Shown here one piece after another: positions 2,434-52,100 of a DNA stretch of 64,000 nt. The notes below the pieces were generated by a model that did not search any database, was not told the origin of the DNA, and worked only from the letters and a program-made list of their open reading frames with translations. Source of the stretch: an uncultured Parcubacteria group bacterium (GTDB taxonomy: Bacteria > Patescibacteriota > Patescibacteriia > UBA9934 > CAMTUG01); assembly GCA_947084965.1 (NCBI GenBank), contig CAMTUG010000001.1:276206-340205 (forward strand), in the 5' to 3' direction. Every line of letters starts with the position of its first letter. Position 1 is the stretch's first letter. Position numbers and translations under genes: made by a program.

Positions 2434-3114
2434 ATGGGACTCAAGCATTTAGCAATGATCCTGGACGGCAACCGTCGGTGGGCAAAATCTAAGGGCTTAC
2501 CGACGCTCGAAGGCCATCGCCGCGGGTACGATAATGTGAAGACGATCGGGCTCGCTGCCCTCGAACGTGGGGTTGAGCAGTTCACTGTTTTTGCCTTTTC
2601 CACGGAAAACTGGAAGCGCTCCGAAGAGGAGGTTGGTTATTTGATGGATCTGTTGCACCACGCCCTCACGGCCGAAGTTGATTTTTACATGAAGCACAAC
2701 GTGCGCTTACGCGTGGTCGGTCGGCGCGAAGGATTGTCGGAAAAGATGATCACGGCGATTGGTGCGGCAGAGGCAAAGACGGCAGGGAACACGGCAGGAC
2801 AGATCAATTTGTGTATCAATTACGGCGGGCGGCCAGAGATCGTCGATGCGGTCAAGGCGCTCGTGGCCGACGGGGTTAAGCCAGAGGACGTGACCGAGGA
2901 TTTGCTCGCTTCGAAGATGTGGATGGCCGGGATCCCGGACCCTGATCTGATCGTGCGTACTTCGGGTGAACAGCGTCTGTCTGGGTTTCTCACGTGGTCA
3001 GGGGTGTACAGCGAACTATTATTTGTAGATAAACACTGGCCGGATTTTTCCGTTGAAGATTTAGATGCTGCGCTTGCCGAGTTTGATCAGCGTGGACGAA
3101 GGTTTGGCAAGTAA
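2434..3114 (+). CDS. uppS: Isoprenyl transferase (undecaprenyl diphosphate synthase)
   Basis: MGLKHLAMILDGNRRWAKSKGLPTLEGHRRGY; length 226 aa, typical of cis-prenyltransferases. Confidence 0.85.
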   Translation: MGLKHLAMILDGNRRWAKSKGLPTLEGHRRGYDNVKTIGLAALERGVEQFTVFAFSTENWKRSEEEVGYLMDLLHHALTAEVDFYMKHNVRLRVVGRREGLSEKMITAIGAAEAKTAGNTAGQINLCINYGGRPEIVDAVKALVADGVKPEDVTEDLLASKMWMAGIPDPDLIVRTSGEQRLSGFLTWSGVYSELLFVDKHWPDFSVEDLDAALAEFDQRGRRFGK

Positions 3115-3151: not shown

Positions 3152-3171
3152 TGCCGTCCCAAAGGAGTCCC

Positions 3172-3741
3172 ATGCCCCCTCGTTCTTCCGCCCCCGCCGG
3201 TCTCTCCTGCTCCTTCTGCACCAAGGCCGCCAACACCCCTGAGGTGAAGAAGGTCATCGCCGGCGTAAACGTCTACATCTGTGACGTCTGCGTCAAGGGG
3301 ATGGTCGCGCTCGTCGTTGTCCAACGTCCGGCTGACGCATCCTACCTCCTGCGTCGGCCCGAGCTCGATCTGCGCACCTTCACCATGACCGTCACGGGGT
3401 CGACGACGCTCGGTGACGTGCTCGGCTGGTACCTGCGTGTCTACCGTACGTTCCCTCACCTCCCCAAGGAGACCGGGACGGTCATCACGAGTGCTGCCTG
3501 CCGATTCTGCAGCCGGGTCGACCAGGTCGTGATCAGCCGCCTCGCGGCCAACATCTGCCTCGACTGCCTGCGGGACGTCGCCAAGATCCTGCTCAAGGAC
3601 GACCCTGCGCCGTCCTACCTGGTGCGTGATGCGGTGCTCGACTTGTGCCCGTTCGCCACCCTCCGCCTCGACGTGGATGAGCCGCACACCATCGGCGATG
3701 TTCTCAACGCCTACACGACCGCATCTCCGCCGCTGAACTGA
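3172..3741 (+). CDS. Small protein with two ClpX-type C4 zinc-finger motifs and no AAA+ domain. Extreme GC3 codon usage unlike the backbone
   Basis: AAGGAG SD 5 nt upstream. Motifs LSCSFCTKAANTPEVKKVIAGVNVYICDVCV and CRFCSRVDQVVISRLAANICLDCL resemble the ClpX N-terminal zinc finger. Third codon positions are almost all G/C, whereas the antisense ORF (3124-3756) lacks that signature. Confidence 0.7.
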   Translation: MPPRSSAPAGLSCSFCTKAANTPEVKKVIAGVNVYICDVCVKGMVALVVVQRPADASYLLRRPELDLRTFTMTVTGSTTLGDVLGWYLRVYRTFPHLPKETGTVITSAACRFCSRVDQVVISRLAANICLDCLRDVAKILLKDDPAPSYLVRDAVLDLCPFATLRLDVDEPHTIGDVLNAYTTASPPLN

Positions 3742-3863: not shown

Positions 3864-5048
3864 TTACGGTCGTTCCTTGGGGCGGAGGAAGTAGAGGACG
3901 ATCGCGAGAATGACGAGCAGTCCGCCGGAAGCGAGCCAGACGTCAGCGATGTTCGCCGGCGTGTCCTCGCGGCCGGACATGTAGAAGGCGAGTGAGAAGA
4001 GGACGATCGCGGCGCCGATCTCTTCCATCAGCGACTGCAACGATCCGAACGTCGAGCGGTATTCGCTCGTAACGTGGTGGTTGGTGTAGCTGTCGAGGAG
4101 CGGTCGGAACGCCCCGCGGCCGACTTCGTGCACCACGCCCATCACGAGGACCAGTCCAAGCCCAGGAACTTGCCCGATGAGCGCCAGGCCAACCCCAGCG
4201 ACGACGAGGGCGATCATCACGGCTTTGGCTTCGGCCCCTGAAGCGATCTTCGCTTTGCGAATGATCATCCCGGCGATGAAGAGCGCCAGATAGAGCGGGC
4301 TCCAGATCAGTCCGAGCTGGCTGGTGGCCACAAACTGCTCGAAGTACTTCGGCCAGTAGTGGTTGAACGCCACGACCAGACCGCTCACCATCCCTACCGC
4401 CACGGCCCAGCGCAGCGCCGAGCTGTTGCGCAGGGCATTGACGCTCCGCTTGAGCGCCTCTTTCTCGCTGACCTTTTCGTGGGCCAGTACTTCGCCGTCG
4501 CCGTTCATGTAGCGGGTGACGACAAAGAGTCCGACGAGAGCAAAGAACGCACTAGCGATCCACGGCCACCGAAGGCCGAAGGTCGATCCGATCCACGAGC
4601 CAAAGATCGCCGCCGGTGCGGCCAGCAATCCTTTGACGATCGCGGCGTTGGCGAACGTCTGCCCCTTTTCGTTTTCGCGATTGTGCAACTTCAAGGCGTC
4701 GACGATCCAGGCCTGCTGAATCCCCGAGAGGAAGGTGAAGGCCAAACCGTTGACCACTTCGGCCGCCAGCGCCCACCAGACGTTCTCTGCCAGGAAGTAG
4801 ATCGCGTTGCCCAGAGCGAAGATCAGGAAGCCGATGCGCAAGGACCAGGCGCGGGAGCGGGCGTCGGCCCACATCCCGGTCGGGACTTCGAAGAGGATGA
4901 TCGCCACCCAGAACCAACCGTTGACCATCGAAACCTGGCTCAAGGTGAGCCCGATCGAGGTGAGGAACGGAACGTAGGTCGCCGTGGTGACCATGAACAT
5001 CAGGCCCAGGGCGGCGGAGAAGAGGATGTAGGCGCGGGAAGGGGACAT
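3864..5048 (-). CDS. MFS-type transporter (12 predicted TM helices), GC-elevated
   Basis: Hydrophobic helices throughout, GGAGG SD upstream, ~60% GC with a high-GC3 5' half. Confidence 0.65.
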   Translation of the reverse strand: MSPSRAYILFSAALGLMFMVTTATYVPFLTSIGLTLSQVSMVNGWFWVAIILFEVPTGMWADARSRAWSLRIGFLIFALGNAIYFLAENVWWALAAEVVNGLAFTFLSGIQQAWIVDALKLHNRENEKGQTFANAAIVKGLLAAPAAIFGSWIGSTFGLRWPWIASAFFALVGLFVVTRYMNGDGEVLAHEKVSEKEALKRSVNALRNSSALRWAVAVGMVSGLVVAFNHYWPKYFEQFVATSQLGLIWSPLYLALFIAGMIIRKAKIASGAEAKAVMIALVVAGVGLALIGQVPGLGLVLVMGVVHEVGRGAFRPLLDSYTNHHVTSEYRSTFGSLQSLMEEIGAAIVLFSLAFYMSGREDTPANIADVWLASGGLLVILAIVLYFLRPKERP

Positions 5049-5311
5049 AGAGCCTCCGGAGAGTCAAAAAAAGAACACGACCCGGGATGATTCCCAGGTC
5101 GTGCGAGGACTCATTATGCAAAAAATCATGCAATCAGTGCTCGACCACCTGAGAAATACAACGCTTTCGGCATATCGCAGCCGACGAACGCGCGTCCGGT
5201 AATGTGGAGAGACTGATAATTCATACTGTTTTTAGTAGACAGGACTTTGTGAGTGATGTCAAGTGACGGAGTCTATATAAAAGCCAGCGGTTACGGTAAA
5301 CTGTCCCCAGT

Positions 5312-6424: not shown

Positions 6425-6545
6425 TATGAAAATACGAAATCCGGAAATCGAAATTCGAAACAAATCAGAATCGGAAAGGGAAAATTTCAAACCTTTCACT
6501 TTTTTCTCTTTTCCGATCGTTTCGAATTTCGATATTTGAATTTCG
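6425..6545. repeat. Intergenic inverted-repeat element with TTCGAA(A/T)-type units forming a long hairpin. Related to 908-1018
   Basis: aatcgaaattcgaaac ... gtttcgaatttcgat; tcggaaag ... cttttccga. It shares aatcggaaag and acgaaa units with the ftsW-murG element. Confidence 0.7.
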
Positions 6546-6550
6546 AATAT

Positions 6551-26035: not shown

Positions 26036-26329
26036 TCAGTGGTAGAGGATGGTCGGATCGTCCGAACCGTCCGTGCCGGTGGTGGCGACCCTCCAGGCTC
26101 GGAGGATGCGTTGTAGTACCTCGTCTGGTTCGGCGGCCTTCGGCGTGACCGGAGGGTTCGAGGGCGTCATCGCGGCGTATCGATGACCGCAGTCCTCGCA
26201 GACGTACTCCGTCGTTGGGCGATCCGCCCCGAAGTTCACGATCTCCACGAGCTGGGTGTTCCGTCGCGGGCACCAGTCGCAGTCGCCGGTACACAGAGGG
26301 TTGCTCTGAAGCAGGCGGGTCTTAGACAT
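26036..26329 (-). CDS. Small Cys-rich zinc-ribbon protein, extreme GC3, inserted inside the operon
   Basis: GGAG SD 5 nt upstream. CTGDCDWC...CEDCGHRY forms two CxxC pairs. Almost all third positions are G/C. A putative TTGACG-17-TATTCC promoter lies in the 3' end of the RimK gene. Confidence 0.65.
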   Translation of the reverse strand: MSKTRLLQSNPLCTGDCDWCPRRNTQLVEIVNFGADRPTTEYVCEDCGHRYAAMTPSNPPVTPKAAEPDEVLQRILRAWRVATTGTDGSDDPTILYH

Positions 26330-30348: not shown

Positions 30349-30726
30349 CTAGCGTGCGACGACCACGTAGATGCCGTCGCGGTACTGACCGAGGAGGTAG
30401 AAGATCAGACCCTCGACCGTGATCCGCAGCGGGCGCAAGTGCGGCTCGAGCGGGACCGTGCCAAGGAGCATCCTTTCGACCGTGGCGGTGGTGCCGCCCA
30501 GCCGCAGGATGTGCACGGCGCTGATGGCGGGGTGGACCTGGGCCTGCAGCGTCCGGATGATCGCTGTGATGATCGGGTTGGGCGTGCCAGGCTTCGTGCC
30601 GGCCAGCTCGCCAGACGCGAGCTCCTCGCGCCGGATCGCGAGGGTGACCATGATCGGTCGGATGCGCAGCTCGGCCTCGGGCCCGAGCGTGGTACGAAGG
30701 TGGTTGCGCAGTCGGGCGGTGTCCAT
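30349..30726 (-). CDS. Hypothetical 125-aa protein, extreme GC3 (cassette gene)
   Basis: GGAG SD 9 nt upstream; putative promoter TTGACG-17-TATGAT. About 93% G/C at third positions but ~45% at second positions. Overlapping antisense ORFs were rejected. Confidence 0.6.
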   Translation of the reverse strand: MDTARLRNHLRTTLGPEAELRIRPIMVTLAIRREELASGELAGTKPGTPNPIITAIIRTLQAQVHPAISAVHILRLGGTTATVERMLLGTVPLEPHLRPLRITVEGLIFYLLGQYRDGIYVVVAR

Positions 30727-39968: not shown

Positions 39969-41294
39969 ATGATTCCCAAATTCATCACCACCAAAAACGC
40001 TGAGCTTCCGGATAATCCGGGGGTGTATTTTTACTATGATACGAAAGGGAAGTTGCTGTACATCGGCAAGGCGACGAGTTTGAAAAAACGCGTGGGATCA
40101 TATTTCACCAAAGCGCATGATAATCGCATCGCCGATTTGGTAACGAAGATTGCGCGGATTGATTACATCGAAACACCGACCGTTATCGAAGCGCTAGTGC
40201 TTGAAGCGAATCAGATCAAAGCGCATACGCCGCCGTACAATGTTTTGCAGCGCGATGACAAAAGTTTTCTGTATGTGGCGATCACCAATGAAGACTTTCC
40301 CAAGCCGACGTTGCTTCGCGGGTTGGAGTTGCAGCGCATGGGAGTTGATCCGTTTGCGCCGACGCTCTCGCTCAAAGCCAAGCGCAAGTTCAAGGCGATT
40401 TATGGTCCGTACACCAGCGGGCATTCGTTGAAGATCGCTCTCGATCTGATTCGTAAGAGCATTCCTTGGACAACCTGTGAACCGCCAGAAGTGACGGGAG
40501 TAGCCAAAGCCTGTTTTTATCGCCACCTTGGCCAGTGTCCAGGAGTTTGTACAGGAGAGATCACCAAGCGTGATTATGCGAAGATTATTCGCAGTCTGAT
40601 GCTGTTTTTTGAGGGCAAAAAGGAACAGATCATACGCCAGATGCGTCGGGAGATGAAGTCTGCGGCGAATGATTTAGATTTTGAACGCGCCGCGGAATTG
40701 AAGCGTAAGACTTTCGCGTTAACGCATATTCAAGACGTGGCGTTGGTGAGTCACGAAGAGCCGTTGCCGTACAATCGCGAGTCGAAGCCGTACATTGATA
40801 TTCTCGGGCGCATCGAAGCGTACGACATCAGTAATATTTCTGGCACCTCCGCAGTTGGATCGATGGTTGTGTTTGATGACGGGAAGCCAGCCAAACAGCA
40901 CTATCGCAAGTTTAAAATCAAAACCGTGGTTGGCGCGAACGACGTGGCGTGTTTAGAGGAGGTGATGCGTCGTCGTTTGGCGCGTGCGGAGCTGCAGCCA
41001 AAAGCTTGGCCGTTGCCAGAGCTGATGGTGATTGATGGCGGCAAGCCGCAAGTCAATCGGGTGCAAGAAGTGCTCGATGAGTTGCAGGTTGCACTGCCGA
41101 TTGTTGGGCTGGCCAAAGGATTTGATCGCAAGCAGGACGTGTTGATTTTTGATCCTGCCAATCGCGAGTTAAAGCGTGTCGTCGAAACGAACAAAGAGAT
41201 CCTCCAGCGCGCCCGCGACGAAGCGCATCGCTTTGCTATCAGCTACCATCGTAAACTACGAGGAAAACGCTCATTATTGGGCCCTCATACTTGA
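39969..41294 (+). CDS. uvrC: Excinuclease ABC subunit C (short form, 441 aa, lacks C-terminal HhH region)
   Basis: GIY-YIG N-terminus (GVYFYYDTKGKLLYIGKATSLKKR), Cys-rich region, UVR domain, RNase H-like endonuclease domain. Confidence 0.85.
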   Translation: MIPKFITTKNAELPDNPGVYFYYDTKGKLLYIGKATSLKKRVGSYFTKAHDNRIADLVTKIARIDYIETPTVIEALVLEANQIKAHTPPYNVLQRDDKSFLYVAITNEDFPKPTLLRGLELQRMGVDPFAPTLSLKAKRKFKAIYGPYTSGHSLKIALDLIRKSIPWTTCEPPEVTGVAKACFYRHLGQCPGVCTGEITKRDYAKIIRSLMLFFEGKKEQIIRQMRREMKSAANDLDFERAAELKRKTFALTHIQDVALVSHEEPLPYNRESKPYIDILGRIEAYDISNISGTSAVGSMVVFDDGKPAKQHYRKFKIKTVVGANDVACLEEVMRRRLARAELQPKAWPLPELMVIDGGKPQVNRVQEVLDELQVALPIVGLAKGFDRKQDVLIFDPANRELKRVVETNKEILQRARDEAHRFAISYHRKLRGKRSLLGPHT

Positions 41295-41319
41295 CAGGGA
41301 TCGATTTTTGCTTTATCTT
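41291..41319 (+). promoter_or_regulatory. Putative sigma70 promoter of cassette gene (TTGACA-17-TATCTT), overlapping the uvrC stop
   Basis: Read directly. Confidence 0.4.
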
Positions 41320-41343
41320 TACCCTCCACCCCAAGGAGTCTCA

Positions 41344-41688
41344 ATGTCCGAGTCCGTCACCGCCTTCCGTCCCGATCCGGCCAAGATCTACGAGATCACG
41401 CTCCTCGAGGGCGACGTGGATCAGATCTGGAACCTCGCCCACGAAGGGGGTCGTTCGATCCTGCTTCTCGTGCGAGACCAGGCCGATCCCGCCGCGCCCG
41501 AGCAGGGGCTCTCCCTCATCCTCTACTCCGTCGCCTGGGAGGGCGGCGACAAGGAAAACCACCCGAACGAGGTCGTCGTCCGCGGCCGCATCCACGGCCG
41601 TACCGCGGACGAGCCGAACCCGGTGATCGGGTTTTGCTGGGACGACAAGTCCCGGACCGGTCTCCTCAACGTGGTCCTCCCGGTCTAG
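41344..41688 (+). CDS. Hypothetical 114-aa protein, extreme GC3 (cassette gene)
   Basis: AAGGAG SD 5 nt upstream of ATG 41344. G/C-ending codons dominate. Followed by terminator 41744-41802. Confidence 0.6.
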   Translation: MSESVTAFRPDPAKIYEITLLEGDVDQIWNLAHEGGRSILLLVRDQADPAAPEQGLSLILYSVAWEGGDKENHPNEVVVRGRIHGRTADEPNPVIGFCWDDKSRTGLLNVVLPV

Positions 41689-41743
41689 ACGTCCGGGCCT
41701 CGCCCTGCACGTCCGACCGGCTGCGATTCTCGCACCCGCCCCG

Positions 41744-41802
41744 GCATGAGCCCCTCGCTCACACTGCCGCGGTGGGTGCTCATGCTTTTATCGTCTTTTT
41801 TT
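41744..41802 (+). terminator. Rho-independent terminator of cassette gene
   Basis: gcatgagc...gctcatgc stem followed by ttttatcgtcttttttt. Confidence 0.55.
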
Positions 41803-41804
41803 GA

Positions 41805-42983
41805 ATGCCGTGTTACATTGTCCCTACTATGAAACATTATCTTTCTGGTCCGTTATTTTTGGGACTTATCGTGACTATGGGCTTTATTCCAATGTCGGTT
41901 TGGGCGGCGAGTGCCTGGCCGGCGTCCACGCAAGGGACGAGTATTGGCGGAGGGTTTGCGGGGATGACTCCGGCATTTGAACCGAGTGGGATTGAATGGT
42001 TGAGTGGGCGTTCTCAATTTGTCGTGGTCGGGGACGAAGGTCAGGTGGCGACGATGAATGCGGACGGAAGTGCTGCCAAGGTCTGGGATCTCGGTCGCAG
42101 CTATGACTTAGAAGGGGTCGCCGTAGCAGATGGGAATTCGAGCCGCGTCTATCTACTCGATGAAAACACCAGCTCGGCATTGGAGTTTGATTTGACGACC
42201 GGAACGCTGACCGGAAAAGTTTGGAGCTTTGCTGACAAACTTTCTGAAATCGACGGTTCTGGAGCGGAAGCTCTCGCTTATGCCAACGGCGCTTTCTATG
42301 TTGGCTGGCAGTACGACGGCGACATTTACGTCTATCCCGCAGATTTGGCGGTTAGTGGCTCGCAAGTTTTTGAACGCGAAATTCACATGACCTCTGGATA
42401 CGTTGATCTTGCTGGACTCACCTACAACAGCGACACCCAAAGACTCTACGCGCTATATGACGGGCTTAACTTGATCGAAGAGCGCTCGCTTAGTGGGGAA
42501 TTGCTCGCTTCCTACACAGCCCCTGGTGTGAATCAGGAGGGTATTGCTTTTGTGAACAACTGCGCTGGATCAAATGCAACGGTGGCGATCGCGGAAGATT
42601 CGGGGAATGTGGTGAGTTACGCGGGGTATCCGATCTCCTGTATTTCTCCGGCCCCAGCTCCTGCCCCTGCACCAGAACCTACGCCAGAGCCAACCCCGGA
42701 GCCAGCTCCTGAACCAGAGCTCATTACGATCACCTCCGTTTCCGGCGTGCGCGATGGGGACATTCTCGTTGCTTACTCCGACGGATCAACGGTGCGTTAC
42801 TCGATCTGGAGCAAAACAACTCGCACCAAGACCTCTGTTCAGCCGCTCACAGATCCGACCCATTACTTAGTGATCCTTGGGAAACAGGTCGCGGTCGTTG
42901 ATGCGATGGATGGTACGATTCTTGGTACGCGCAGCAAACCGCGATCCTCGTCAGTGCTGTACAGCTGGGCCAATTCGTTCTAA
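41805..42983 (+). CDS. Secreted hypothetical protein with beta-propeller-like N-domain, (PAPAPEPTPEP) linker and C-terminal domain
   Basis: Signal peptide, Pro/Ala/Glu linker. Alternative start at 41829. Confidence 0.45.
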   Translation: MPCYIVPTMKHYLSGPLFLGLIVTMGFIPMSVWAASAWPASTQGTSIGGGFAGMTPAFEPSGIEWLSGRSQFVVVGDEGQVATMNADGSAAKVWDLGRSYDLEGVAVADGNSSRVYLLDENTSSALEFDLTTGTLTGKVWSFADKLSEIDGSGAEALAYANGAFYVGWQYDGDIYVYPADLAVSGSQVFEREIHMTSGYVDLAGLTYNSDTQRLYALYDGLNLIEERSLSGELLASYTAPGVNQEGIAFVNNCAGSNATVAIAEDSGNVVSYAGYPISCISPAPAPAPAPEPTPEPTPEPAPEPELITITSVSGVRDGDILVAYSDGSTVRYSIWSKTTRTKTSVQPLTDPTHYLVILGKQVAVVDAMDGTILGTRSKPRSSSVLYSWANSF

Positions 42984-43074: not shown

Positions 43075-43103
43075 TTGACGCGTGTCACTGAGTGGAATAG
43101 AAT
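43075..43103 (+). promoter_or_regulatory. dcw-type promoter upstream of mraZ (TTGACG-17-TAGAAT), with a ~145-nt leader carrying GTGGG(G) direct repeats (candidate MraZ boxes)
   Basis: Hexamers read directly. GTGGG at 43122 and GTGGGG at 43133 are spaced ~10 nt apart; a third GTGGGG is at 43189. Confidence 0.5.
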
Positions 43104-43247
43104 GGGGTTACAGGGAACGAAGTGGGTAACTGTGGGGAAGGTCGATCAACGCGTCGGCGTCCTCATTTTTATTCTCCTGTGGGGTACAAAGCAATCGCAA
43201 AACAAAAACAAAAAGTGCCTGCTAAGTAACGTGACCGTGAGTCCACT

Positions 43248-43679
43248 ATGTTTCTCGGAGAATATCATCACTCCATAGACGAGAAAGGCCGACTGGCAGT
43301 GCCAGTGAAGTTTCGGGCTGACTTGTCGAAGGGGGCGGTGATCACTCGGGGACTCGACGGCGCGTTATTCTTGTTTCCCCAGGAGGAGTGGGGAAAGCTT
43401 GCAGAGAAATTGGCAAGCTTGCCCTTGGGGCGAGCAAACTCACGTGCATTCGCCCGGCTCATGCTTGCGGGCGCAATGGACGCTTCACTCGATAAACAAG
43501 GCCGCGTCGTCGTCCCCGAGTTCCTCCGGGAGTATGCGGGTATTGCCAAAACGGTGGTAATCGCTGGTCTCTATAACCGTCTGGAAATTTGGGATGAAGC
43601 GAAGTGGGCTTTATACAAAACCGAAACAGAAGGGGAGGCAGGCGGGATTGCAGAACAGTTGGGTGAGCTTGGGCTCTAG
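43248..43679 (+). CDS. mraZ: Transcriptional regulator MraZ
   Basis: MFLGEYHHSIDEKGRLAVPVKFR..., two MraZ repeats, 143 aa. Confidence 0.85.
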   Translation: MFLGEYHHSIDEKGRLAVPVKFRADLSKGAVITRGLDGALFLFPQEEWGKLAEKLASLPLGRANSRAFARLMLAGAMDASLDKQGRVVVPEFLREYAGIAKTVVIAGLYNRLEIWDEAKWALYKTETEGEAGGIAEQLGELGL

Positions 43680-51632: not shown

Positions 51633-52100
51633 TCAGCCGTAGAAGCCGAGGCGTTGGTAGAGGTGGGGTGGGAAGGAGACGCTGGGGGTCAGCGCCTGGT
51701 CCTCTGTGGTCGAGGTGGCGACGACCTGGTTGGTGCCGAGGTCCGTGTTCACGAAGAACTGGAACTCGACCGCTCCGGTCCCGAAGAAGGTGGAGATCAC
51801 GGCCACGCCCTGCTCGTTCGAGCGGACGTACCCGTAGTAGTCGAACCCGCTGTAGCCGATCAGCGGGATCTCGAGCTTGAACCCGACCAGCGCGCAGAAC
51901 GGTCGGTCGCCCCTGAGGACGATGTTCTGCATGCTGCGCTCGAGCCCTTCCGCCTTCGCACCGCGGTAGGTGTAGCGGACCATCTGGTTGGAGTACTTGA
52001 TGAAGTCGGCCATGAAGCCGAACTTCTTCAGGAATTCCTTGCTGAGGAAGACCGCCAGTGTGGTGGAGAGGACGAGGCAGGTGGTGAGGAGAACGGTCAT
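51633..52100 (-). CDS. Secreted/membrane-anchored hypothetical protein (155 aa), extreme GC3 (cassette gene)
   Basis: GGAAGG SD upstream. Near-consensus promoter TTGACT-17-TATATT, whose + strand reverse complement lies at 52146-52174. Terminator hairpin gaagcgcg...cgcgcttc plus T-run after the stop. The antisense ORFs 51621-52190(+) and 51502-52155(-) were rejected. Confidence 0.65.
   Translation of the reverse strand: MTVLLTTCLVLSTTLAVFLSKEFLKKFGFMADFIKYSNQMVRYTYRGAKAEGLERSMQNIVLRGDRPFCALVGFKLEIPLIGYSGFDYYGYVRSNEQGVAVISTFFGTGAVEFQFFVNTDLGTNQVVATSTTEDQALTPSVSFPPHLYQRLGFYG

Follow-up and report, generated by a model that had tools for sequence, protein, structure and literature searches.

How does a gene of only 114 codons, whose promoter overlaps the stop codon of uvrC and whose base composition departs from that of the surrounding DNA, come to lie directly behind uvrC, and does it belong to a group of cassettes with a common origin or a shared vector, as was hinted at by an earlier reading made from the letters of the DNA (the sequence-only reading)? 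The question is raised by a stretch of 64,000 nt, here called the window, and the name c114 is given here to the product of the open reading frame (ORF) of 114 amino acids (aa). The answer that we consider likely is that c114 is a real accessory gene with its own expression signals, which occupies a hypervariable slot between uvrC and mraZ, and that its alleles are exchanged by homologous recombination.

The cassette follows uvrC, its upstream anchor, an ORF at 39969..41294 (plus strand, as are all features of the locus given here unless otherwise stated) which encodes a short form of the protein (441 aa) with the Pfam domains GIY-YIG, UVR and UvrC_RNaseH_dom. Scanning the plus strand between 40800 and 42200 for sigma-70-like promoters returned exactly one site, matching the consensus at 10 of 12 positions, with the -35 hexamer TTGACA at 41291..41296 and, after a spacer of 17 nt, the -10 hexamer TATCTT at 41314..41319; the uvrC stop codon TGA (41292-41294) falls within the -35 hexamer. 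Compared with the 0.5 matches expected in shuffled sequences, a single match is not significant alone. A C-rich leader (41320..41343), of which approximately 18 nt would be transcribed, holds the Shine-Dalgarno sequence (SD) AAGGAG (41333-41338), which 5 nt separate from the ATG at 41344, and the coding sequence (CDS) of c114, an acidic and probably cytosolic protein, occupies 41344..41688 with the stop codon TAG at 41686-41688. Its GC content is 0.67 and its GC content at third codon positions (GC3) 0.89, against 0.53 for the GC content of the window and approximately 0.55-0.65 for the GC3 of native genes. An element resembling an intrinsic terminator (41732..41802) closes the cassette: the hairpin GCACCCGCC...GGTGGGTGC (41732-41779), with 19 bp and interrupted, has a folding energy of -34.8 kcal/mol (z = -7.0, with 0 of 200 shuffled sequences as stable) and is followed by TCATGC-TTTT-ATCGTC-TTTTTTT, in which the T-runs lie at 41786-41789 and 41796-41802, the U-tract thus beginning 6 nt past the stem. 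A simple terminator scan missed this hairpin because of its long loop. The promoter, SD, GC3-rich ORF and strong terminator described in the sequence-only reading are therefore all present, save that the ATG is placed at 41344 and not within 41290-41343. With its 17-nt spacing and its GC-rich hairpin followed by a U-tract, the cassette has the features of a sigma-70 promoter and an intrinsic terminator, whose activity is predicted; transcription would start from the gene's own sigma-70-type promoter, pass through a leader of about 18 nt carrying a canonical SD, unlike the native genes, which lack an SD and often look leaderless, and would be ended by the long GC-rich hairpin and its T-tract.

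Evidence for the exchange of alleles is provided by two relatives, L001 and L002, which stem from separate sequencing runs; three independent assemblies confirm the allele of L002. The alleles of these two and that of the window are the three known ones, all of them exactly 114 aa long, each directly 3' of uvrC with 56 nt from the -35 hexamer to the ATG, and all with GGGTGCTCATGCTTTT in their terminators. The geometry of -35 hexamer, 17-nt spacer, -10 hexamer and 24-nt leader, which makes up these 56 nt, has been kept in L001 and L002 despite synonymous divergence (dS) of 0.7-0.9 in the CDS; both carry the -35 hexamer TTGACA, the aligned -10 hexamer being TAGCTT in L002 and TAGTTT in L001 at equal spacing, and both have a leader, ccacccaaggag, homologous to that of the window. 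When L001 and L002 are compared with each other, their identity amounts to 95% at the 3' end of uvrC and 94% over promoter and leader, falls to 59% in the DNA of the c114 CDS (51% in amino acids), rises to 100% (186/186) over the terminator, next promoter and next SD and is still 99% over the first 168 nt of the next CDS, which encodes a secreted protein of 156-159 aa; it then drops to 70% in the rest of this CDS, with 90% in the second terminator, 52% in an AT-rich spacer and 97% in a segment resembling a non-coding RNA (ncRNA). Between the c114 CDSs of L001 and L002 dS reaches 1.19, with a ratio of nonsynonymous to synonymous divergence (dN/dS) of 0.41, the corresponding values being 0.86 and 0.51 for the window and L001 and 0.71 and 0.80 for the window and L002. 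Saturated dS enclosed by near-identical flanks indicates that old alleles were moved between backgrounds by recombination, with the crossovers in the regulatory arms, a pattern which in-situ positive selection alone would not give. As the alleles are far more diverged than the flanks, it is whole CDSs that are exchanged, the conserved arms in which homologous recombination takes place being the promoter and the terminator.

The locus was then compared with that of the 80 best uvrC relatives taken from the GTDB species representatives, all of which are metagenome-assembled genomes of Candidatus Uhrbacteria or Patescibacteria (56-76% aa identity); judged by its sequence, the window genome itself is a member of Candidatus Uhrbacteria, within the Candidate Phyla Radiation (CPR)/Patescibacteria. 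In 46 of the 80 loci, and in the window, uvrC is followed by mraZ-rsmH-ftsL, and since the length of the uvrC-mraZ interval varies from 178 to 3674 bp, this interval constitutes a hotspot of variable content. In the window it measures 1953 bp and contains c114 and, outside the cassette, a gene for a secreted SdiA-regulated-like protein (41829..42983) which is unique to the window among more than 80 Uhrbacteria uvrC-mraZ gaps. Other states of the slot are shown by further close uvrC relatives, recovered by way of the protein database: by L110, with a uvrC 78% identical to that of the window and the same APH-uvrC upstream synteny, where the site is empty and uvrC is followed by a terminator and then by the mraZ promoter; by L108 (80-82%) and L111 (77-78%), which have only an ncRNA-like element after uvrC, in L111 located after a TTGACG at the uvrC stop; and by L053 (76%), which has an unrelated secreted ORF of 125 aa (sec125) in this position, flanked by a -35 hexamer TTGACT overlapping the uvrC TGA and by a terminator of the GCACCCGC...GGGTG family. 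The right anchor, consisting of mraZ with its promoter (TTGACG...ATAGAAT) and a leader containing GTGGG repeats (43075..43679), is conserved, and the mraZ promoter of the window is also found in L110, L108, L002 and L053.

Outside this locus c114 is an orphan. A word search of 5.8e9 proteins returned 2 matches, c114 itself and P0002, the allele of L001 (48% identity), and tblastn over all fetched loci added that of L002 (41% identity; P0004, L002/L105), so that the family comprises three known alleles, in the window, L001 and L002 only. A profile hidden Markov model search of 1.8e9 representatives recovered the three alleles and nothing else apart from P0005 and P0006, giant tandem-repeat proteins in which many weak stretches are summed and which were rejected as artefacts. 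No homologue was found in the JGI metagenomes, in the IMG/VR viral contigs or, by tblastn, in the INPHARED phages, an IMG/VR match (L104) being rejected as a 16-residue pattern outside any ORF on that strand; none of the three alleles matches the defence profiles of PADLOC or the phage profiles of PHROGs, and c114 has no Pfam match.

In a neighbour-joining tree of uvrC the window groups with L108 and L110, and L002 with L111, L053 and L112. The gene therefore occurs in two subclades that also contain sisters devoid of it, and this patchy distribution, with L110 empty and L108 without the cassette, shows that the locus is not simply ancestral. Of the features by which lateral islands are recognised, c114 displays the patchy distribution with an empty site (L110) and other content in L108, L111 and L053, as well as the deviant composition; no donor lineage, no adjacent tRNA and no integrase beside the locus were found. 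It resembles chromosomal hotspot islets in lying between the syntenic core anchors uvrC and mraZ, in an interval with unrelated content and an empty site, in its deviant composition, and in having alleles that were swapped between near-identical backgrounds. It is unlike them in being a single tiny gene with a private promoter and terminator and with no trace of an integrase, tRNA or mobile element, and in keeping its regulatory arms conserved while the CDS is replaced.

Among the alternatives to allele exchange, the one that survives best, though we consider it rather unlikely, is that c114 is ancestral in a subgroup of Uhrbacteria, where it was inherited vertically, evolved fast and suffered repeated loss, lateral exchange playing no part. 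Both subclades indeed agree in position, promoter geometry and terminator, and a TTGAC -35 sequence that overlaps or abuts the uvrC stop recurs in L053 and, apparently as a relic, in L111, which suggests that the slot is old. This explanation, however, requires at least 4 independent losses on the uvrC tree and cannot account for L001 and L002, whose flanks are 94-100% identical while the CDS enclosed by them has an identity of 59% (dS 1.19).

The composition of c114 can be placed in a wider context, as six ORFs of the window are GC3-rich (0.80-0.90). Apart from c114 these encode a ClpX-type (double) zinc-finger protein (ClpX-ZnF; 3172-3741, plus strand), which is a singleton orphan among 5.8e9 proteins, an MFS transporter (3864-5048, minus strand), a zinc-ribbon-like protein of 97 aa (26036-26329, minus strand), a protein of 125 aa (30349-30726, minus strand) and a membrane protein of 155 aa (51633-52100, minus strand), all of them SD-led. 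GGAG or GGAAGG is found 4-7 nt before the ATG in 6/6 of the GC3-rich ORFs as opposed to 2/42 native starts (Fisher p ~2e-6, hand calculation). Promoters of the form TTGNNN-17-TANNNT with leaders of 22-45 nt precede four of the six, and a fifth (26329) has a near variant, TTGACG-17-TATTCC, read by eye; over the five, the leaders measure 20-47 nt. Over the 80 Uhrbacteria loci and the window, an SD was present in 13/33 GC3-rich ORFs and in 0/33 at a control position, compared with 54/561 (10%) ordinary ORFs, scored at -15..-4, and 48/561 (9%) at their control position (odds ratio 6.1, p 1.5e-5 for GC3-rich versus ordinary ORFs). Ordinary ORFs are accordingly not enriched in SDs. SD-like tetramers precede uvrC in 6/74 and mraZ in 0/45 of the Uhrbacteria loci, and the relative L105 shows the same split between GC3-rich and native genes. 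Native genes of the window mostly have no SD, as exemplified by the starts at 39969 (uvrC), 17594, 20094 (minus), 38177 (minus) and 54643 (minus), and often have a -10-like hexamer 6-10 nt ahead of the ATG, which, as far as can be judged from sequence, suggests widespread leaderless mRNAs. The GC3-rich, SD-led and mostly orphan genes thus look like a genome-wide, laterally acquired class.

How high GC3 is maintained is a separate matter. The c114 alleles are GC3-rich in spite of their saturated dS, so that the composition is maintained and not decaying. Expression-linked codon bias was ruled out as its cause, the gene for ribosomal protein L27 having a GC3 of 0.60 in L105, and the equally hypervariable AT-rich spacer of L001 and L002 argues against variability alone as a source of GC-richness. 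Ongoing exchange with a GC-rich gene pool is possible, as is biased gene conversion in a recombination hotspot.

With regard to function, c114 has no signal peptide and an isoelectric point of 4.7-5.3, and its AlphaFold2 (AF2) model, based on a two-sequence alignment (predicted local distance difference test score 80, predicted TM score 0.70), has the topology strand-helix-five strands, a predicted small fold of a beta-barrel plus helix. Over the three alleles 17% of the N-terminal half and 46% of the C-terminal half is invariant, the latter forming a conserved core with the motifs YxVAWEGGD, E[VI]VVRxR, PV[IV]GFCWD and GLLN[VI]V. Comparison with known structures gave SpoIIQ as the best sequence-profile match in the PDB (E 0.12, rejected) and a best E of 0.17 in the viral structures of BFVD (Foldseek). 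CBF-beta is the subunit of a eukaryotic transcription factor. The CBF-beta fold shares 13% sequence identity with c114, from which no functional or evolutionary link is to be drawn.

In L001 and L002 a change of c114 allele goes along with a change in the neighbouring secreted protein, in its variable C-terminal domain, and this co-variation, along with the conserved core and variable face of c114, is the basis for a tentative proposal of low confidence, drawn by analogy, that c114 may be a specificity-determining binding or immunity-type protein, neutralising in action, under diversifying or frequency-dependent selection. Like the immunity proteins of colicins, pyocins or polymorphic toxins, c114 would be a small acidic cytosolic protein with divergent alleles in near-identical strains, co-varying with the C-terminal domain of a secreted neighbour whose N-terminus is conserved. 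It differs from them in that no toxin domain is recognisable and that no immunity family was found to match it in sequence or, convincingly, in fold.

The neighbour in question, encoded in L001 and L002 by a second cassette after c114 (L001:738-1217, L002:5940-6410), is the secreted protein of 156-159 aa, here termed sec156. Its first ~56 codons are conserved between L001 and L002 while its C-terminal ~100 codons are 70% identical in DNA, its cassette ends in a terminator from the same family as that of c114, and no match to Pfam, PADLOC or PHROGs was found for it.

Several points weigh against the explanation by an accessory gene with exchanged alleles, or against parts of it. The activity of the promoter and of the terminator is predicted from sequence; the native start codons used in the SD comparison of the window are approximate; and replacement of alleles is deduced from one pair of backgrounds, L001 and L002, in which L001 is a single contig of 1.7 kb. 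No donor lineage was identified. GC3 stays at 0.72-0.89 across saturated dS, and is therefore not explained by a single old transfer followed by amelioration. As far as immunity is concerned, the window copy is without a sec156-like partner, and c114 precedes the secreted gene and is transcribed apart from it, with its own promoter and terminator, which is atypical for toxin-immunity pairs.

A bolder version of allele exchange, which we put forward as speculative, is that a conserved "expression socket", made up of the promoter next to uvrC and the GCACCCGC...GGGTGCTC terminator, takes up unrelated and hyper-divergent GC3-rich ORFs by homologous recombination, and that a separate pool of GC3-rich, SD-led orphan genes circulates laterally in addition. 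The socket would be occupied by c114 (window, L001, L002) and by secreted proteins, namely that of L053 and those encoded by the second unit in L001 and L002. The terminator element of the window, GCACCCGC...GGGTG(C/T)TC, recurs in the relatives at the end of four cassettes or kinds of cassette: c114 in L001, c114 in L002, sec156, and sec125 in L053. Comparison of sec125 of L053 with sec156 of L002 gave no clear sign of homology (BLASTP E 0.11, hhalign probability 2%). A metagenome scan for the terminator motif re-found only L053 (as L097), its other 21 matches being unrelated terminators in unrelated genomes. If the socket exists, it would amount to an integrase-free cassette system with promoter-bearing units, and Uhrbacteria would hold a gene pool translated differently from their SD-less or leaderless core genome and serving strain-specific interactions.

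Delivery of the GC3-rich cassettes by one shared vector or mobile element, integron-like or transposon-borne, with homologous 5' untranslated regions (UTRs), is in our view improbable. It had been suggested on the grounds that the SD context of c114 closely resembles that of the ClpX-ZnF cassette, and the match exists to the letter, between CCAAAGGAGTCCC at 3159-3171 (ClpX-ZnF) and CCCAAGGAGTCTC at 41330-41342 (c114). The 13-mer, however, occurs at chance frequency in the window (3 matches with up to 2 mismatches versus 4.0 expected). Local alignment of the 70 nt upstream of the two genes, the best-scoring pair in the window, gives p = 0.010 uncorrected, which is not significant over the 15 in-window pairs, and the matching bases are confined to functional motifs: the -35 and -10 hexamers, the C-rich leader and AAGGAGTC. 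What stands of this resemblance is its being a signature of the class, in which 6/6 have an SD; descent of the c114 and ClpX-ZnF UTRs from a common ancestor is unsupported by the alignment. The stereotyped architecture of all GC3-rich ORFs and the use of one terminator family by two unrelated ORF families in the uvrC slot of relatives would also fit a shared vector. Against this, the terminator motif of c114 was not found elsewhere in the 64-kb window and c114 and ClpX-ZnF have no terminator in common; no second copy of c114 was found in the window, and no border repeats between 41200 and 41900; comparison with the empty site of L110 revealed no duplicated target; and the features of transposon cargo (terminal inverted repeats, target-site duplication, a transposase) are lacking. 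Neither an integrase nor a transposase was seen next to the locus, whose neighbours are uvrC, APH, PNPOx and the SdiA-like gene, and no tRNA adjoins it, the nearest being ~21 kb away.

The cassettes do resemble those of integrons in being compact single-ORF units, often orphans, and in that, among relatives, the uvrC slot holds unrelated ORFs with a similar imperfect palindrome behind them. They are unlike them in each carrying a promoter of their own, which for c114 is TTGACA-17-TATCTT and is conserved in relatives, whereas integron cassettes are promoterless and expressed from Pc; the c114 palindrome and T-tract look like an intrinsic terminator and have no RYYYAAC/GTTRRRY cores, that is, no attC-like R''/R' boxes; and the window contains no intI, attI or array, the motif occurring once in 64 kb. 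The idea of a common origin or shared vector thus retains its description of a self-contained, foreign-looking class and loses its UTR homology and its vector. Overall, the evidence for allele exchange is good, and for a dedicated mobile vector there is none.

Two further explanations can be dismissed as very improbable. One is that the divergence results from targeted hypermutation, by a diversity-generating retroelement (DGR) or another local mutator, and not from the exchange of alleles. CPR genomes are rich in DGRs, and as with DGR variable proteins in these bacteria, hypervariability is sharply localised, being confined here to coding segments; nevertheless, neither a reverse transcriptase nor any second copy resembling a template repeat was found in the 64 kb, the 142 mismatches are spread over all codon positions (47/35/60) and comprise all types, C-G being commonest, so that they are not adenine-specific, the whole CDS of 345 nt is diverged to saturated dS and not just a C-terminal variable region of ~100 nt, and the AT-rich non-coding spacer is equally diverged. 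The other, that c114 is no gene but an open frame arising from GC-rich DNA, or a structured RNA, appeals to the long chance ORFs that such DNA gives (alternative ORFs lie at 41291-41626 on the plus and 41341-41595 on the minus strand, and antisense ORFs as long as 365-378 aa run across the cassettes of L001 and L002), but is contradicted by the annotated frame alone being kept intact at 114 codons in three alleles with conserved motifs and dN/dS below 1 (0.41-0.80 at dS 0.71-1.19), by the SD at the right distance, by a GC1/GC2/GC3 periodicity with GC3 well above GC2, by an antisense ORF of just 84 aa in the window, by the lack of an Rfam match and by the confident AF2 model.

Very little is known of the genes that determine strain specificity in the CPR/Patescibacteria, a group regarded as obligate episymbionts. 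The uvrC-mraZ interval provides a defined chromosomal slot whose content turns over among Uhrbacteria, and wholesale exchange of alleles between near-identical genomes is the signature expected at an interface of interaction with a host, phage or competitor. In practical terms, the combination of SD and GC3 offers a cheap marker, obtainable from sequence, for recently exchanged genes in Uhrbacteria, and calls for caution with gene callers which assume one model of the ribosome binding site per genome.

Several observations concern the remaining content of the slot. The SdiA-regulated-like protein is of the beta-propeller type, with a PAPAPEPTPEP linker and a C-terminal extension, and its gene has a native GC3 (0.55) and no SD, TTACAT being found 9 nt ahead of its ATG. 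The mraZ promoter, TTGACG-17-ATAGAAT, and its leader of ~150 nt with GTGGG/TGGGG boxes are conserved in the clade (window 43075-43247; L110:3760-3975; L108:1970-2127), and these boxes are consistent with sites of MraZ autoregulation. The ncRNA-like element, absent from the window, is a candidate unannotated structured RNA of ~230 nt, conserved on the minus strand of the uvrC-mraZ gap of relatives (L002:6655-6905, L001:1436-1705, L053:1592-1822, L108:1688-1925, L111:6428-6685). Its promoter is of the TGnTATAGT type, its terminal helix is long and its 3' end resembles a terminator; RNAalifold, applied to four sequences only, predicts 57 pairs, 18 of them with compensatory changes. No Rfam match was obtained for it even at E <= 10, and that it may be a 6S-like rod is a guess only.

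UvrC is short (~435-460 aa) in the window and in all Uhrbacteria relatives, with no Pfam match to the C-terminal helix-hairpin-helix domain. In L105 one GC3-rich gene of 488 aa separates the UPP-synthase gene from uvrC (L105:5647-9243) while in the window the UPP-synthase gene (2434-3114) and uvrC are ~37 kb apart, so that the two lineages differ by a large rearrangement or by an insertion. The five GC3-rich genes of the window other than c114 each end in a strong hairpin terminator. Upstream of the MFS gene (5049-5120, minus strand) and just ahead of its SD, a GC-rich hairpin leads into a T-run (cgcacgacctggg...cccgggtcgtg ttcttttttt); this element may act as an attenuator in the leader or as a terminator serving the divergent side. 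Finally, short tandem repeats lie directly upstream of an 820-aa gene (~6490-6550; cgaatttcga-like units) and of a murG-like gene (~960-1018; tcgtattt units), and murG in L105 is preceded by a similar AT-rich repeat.

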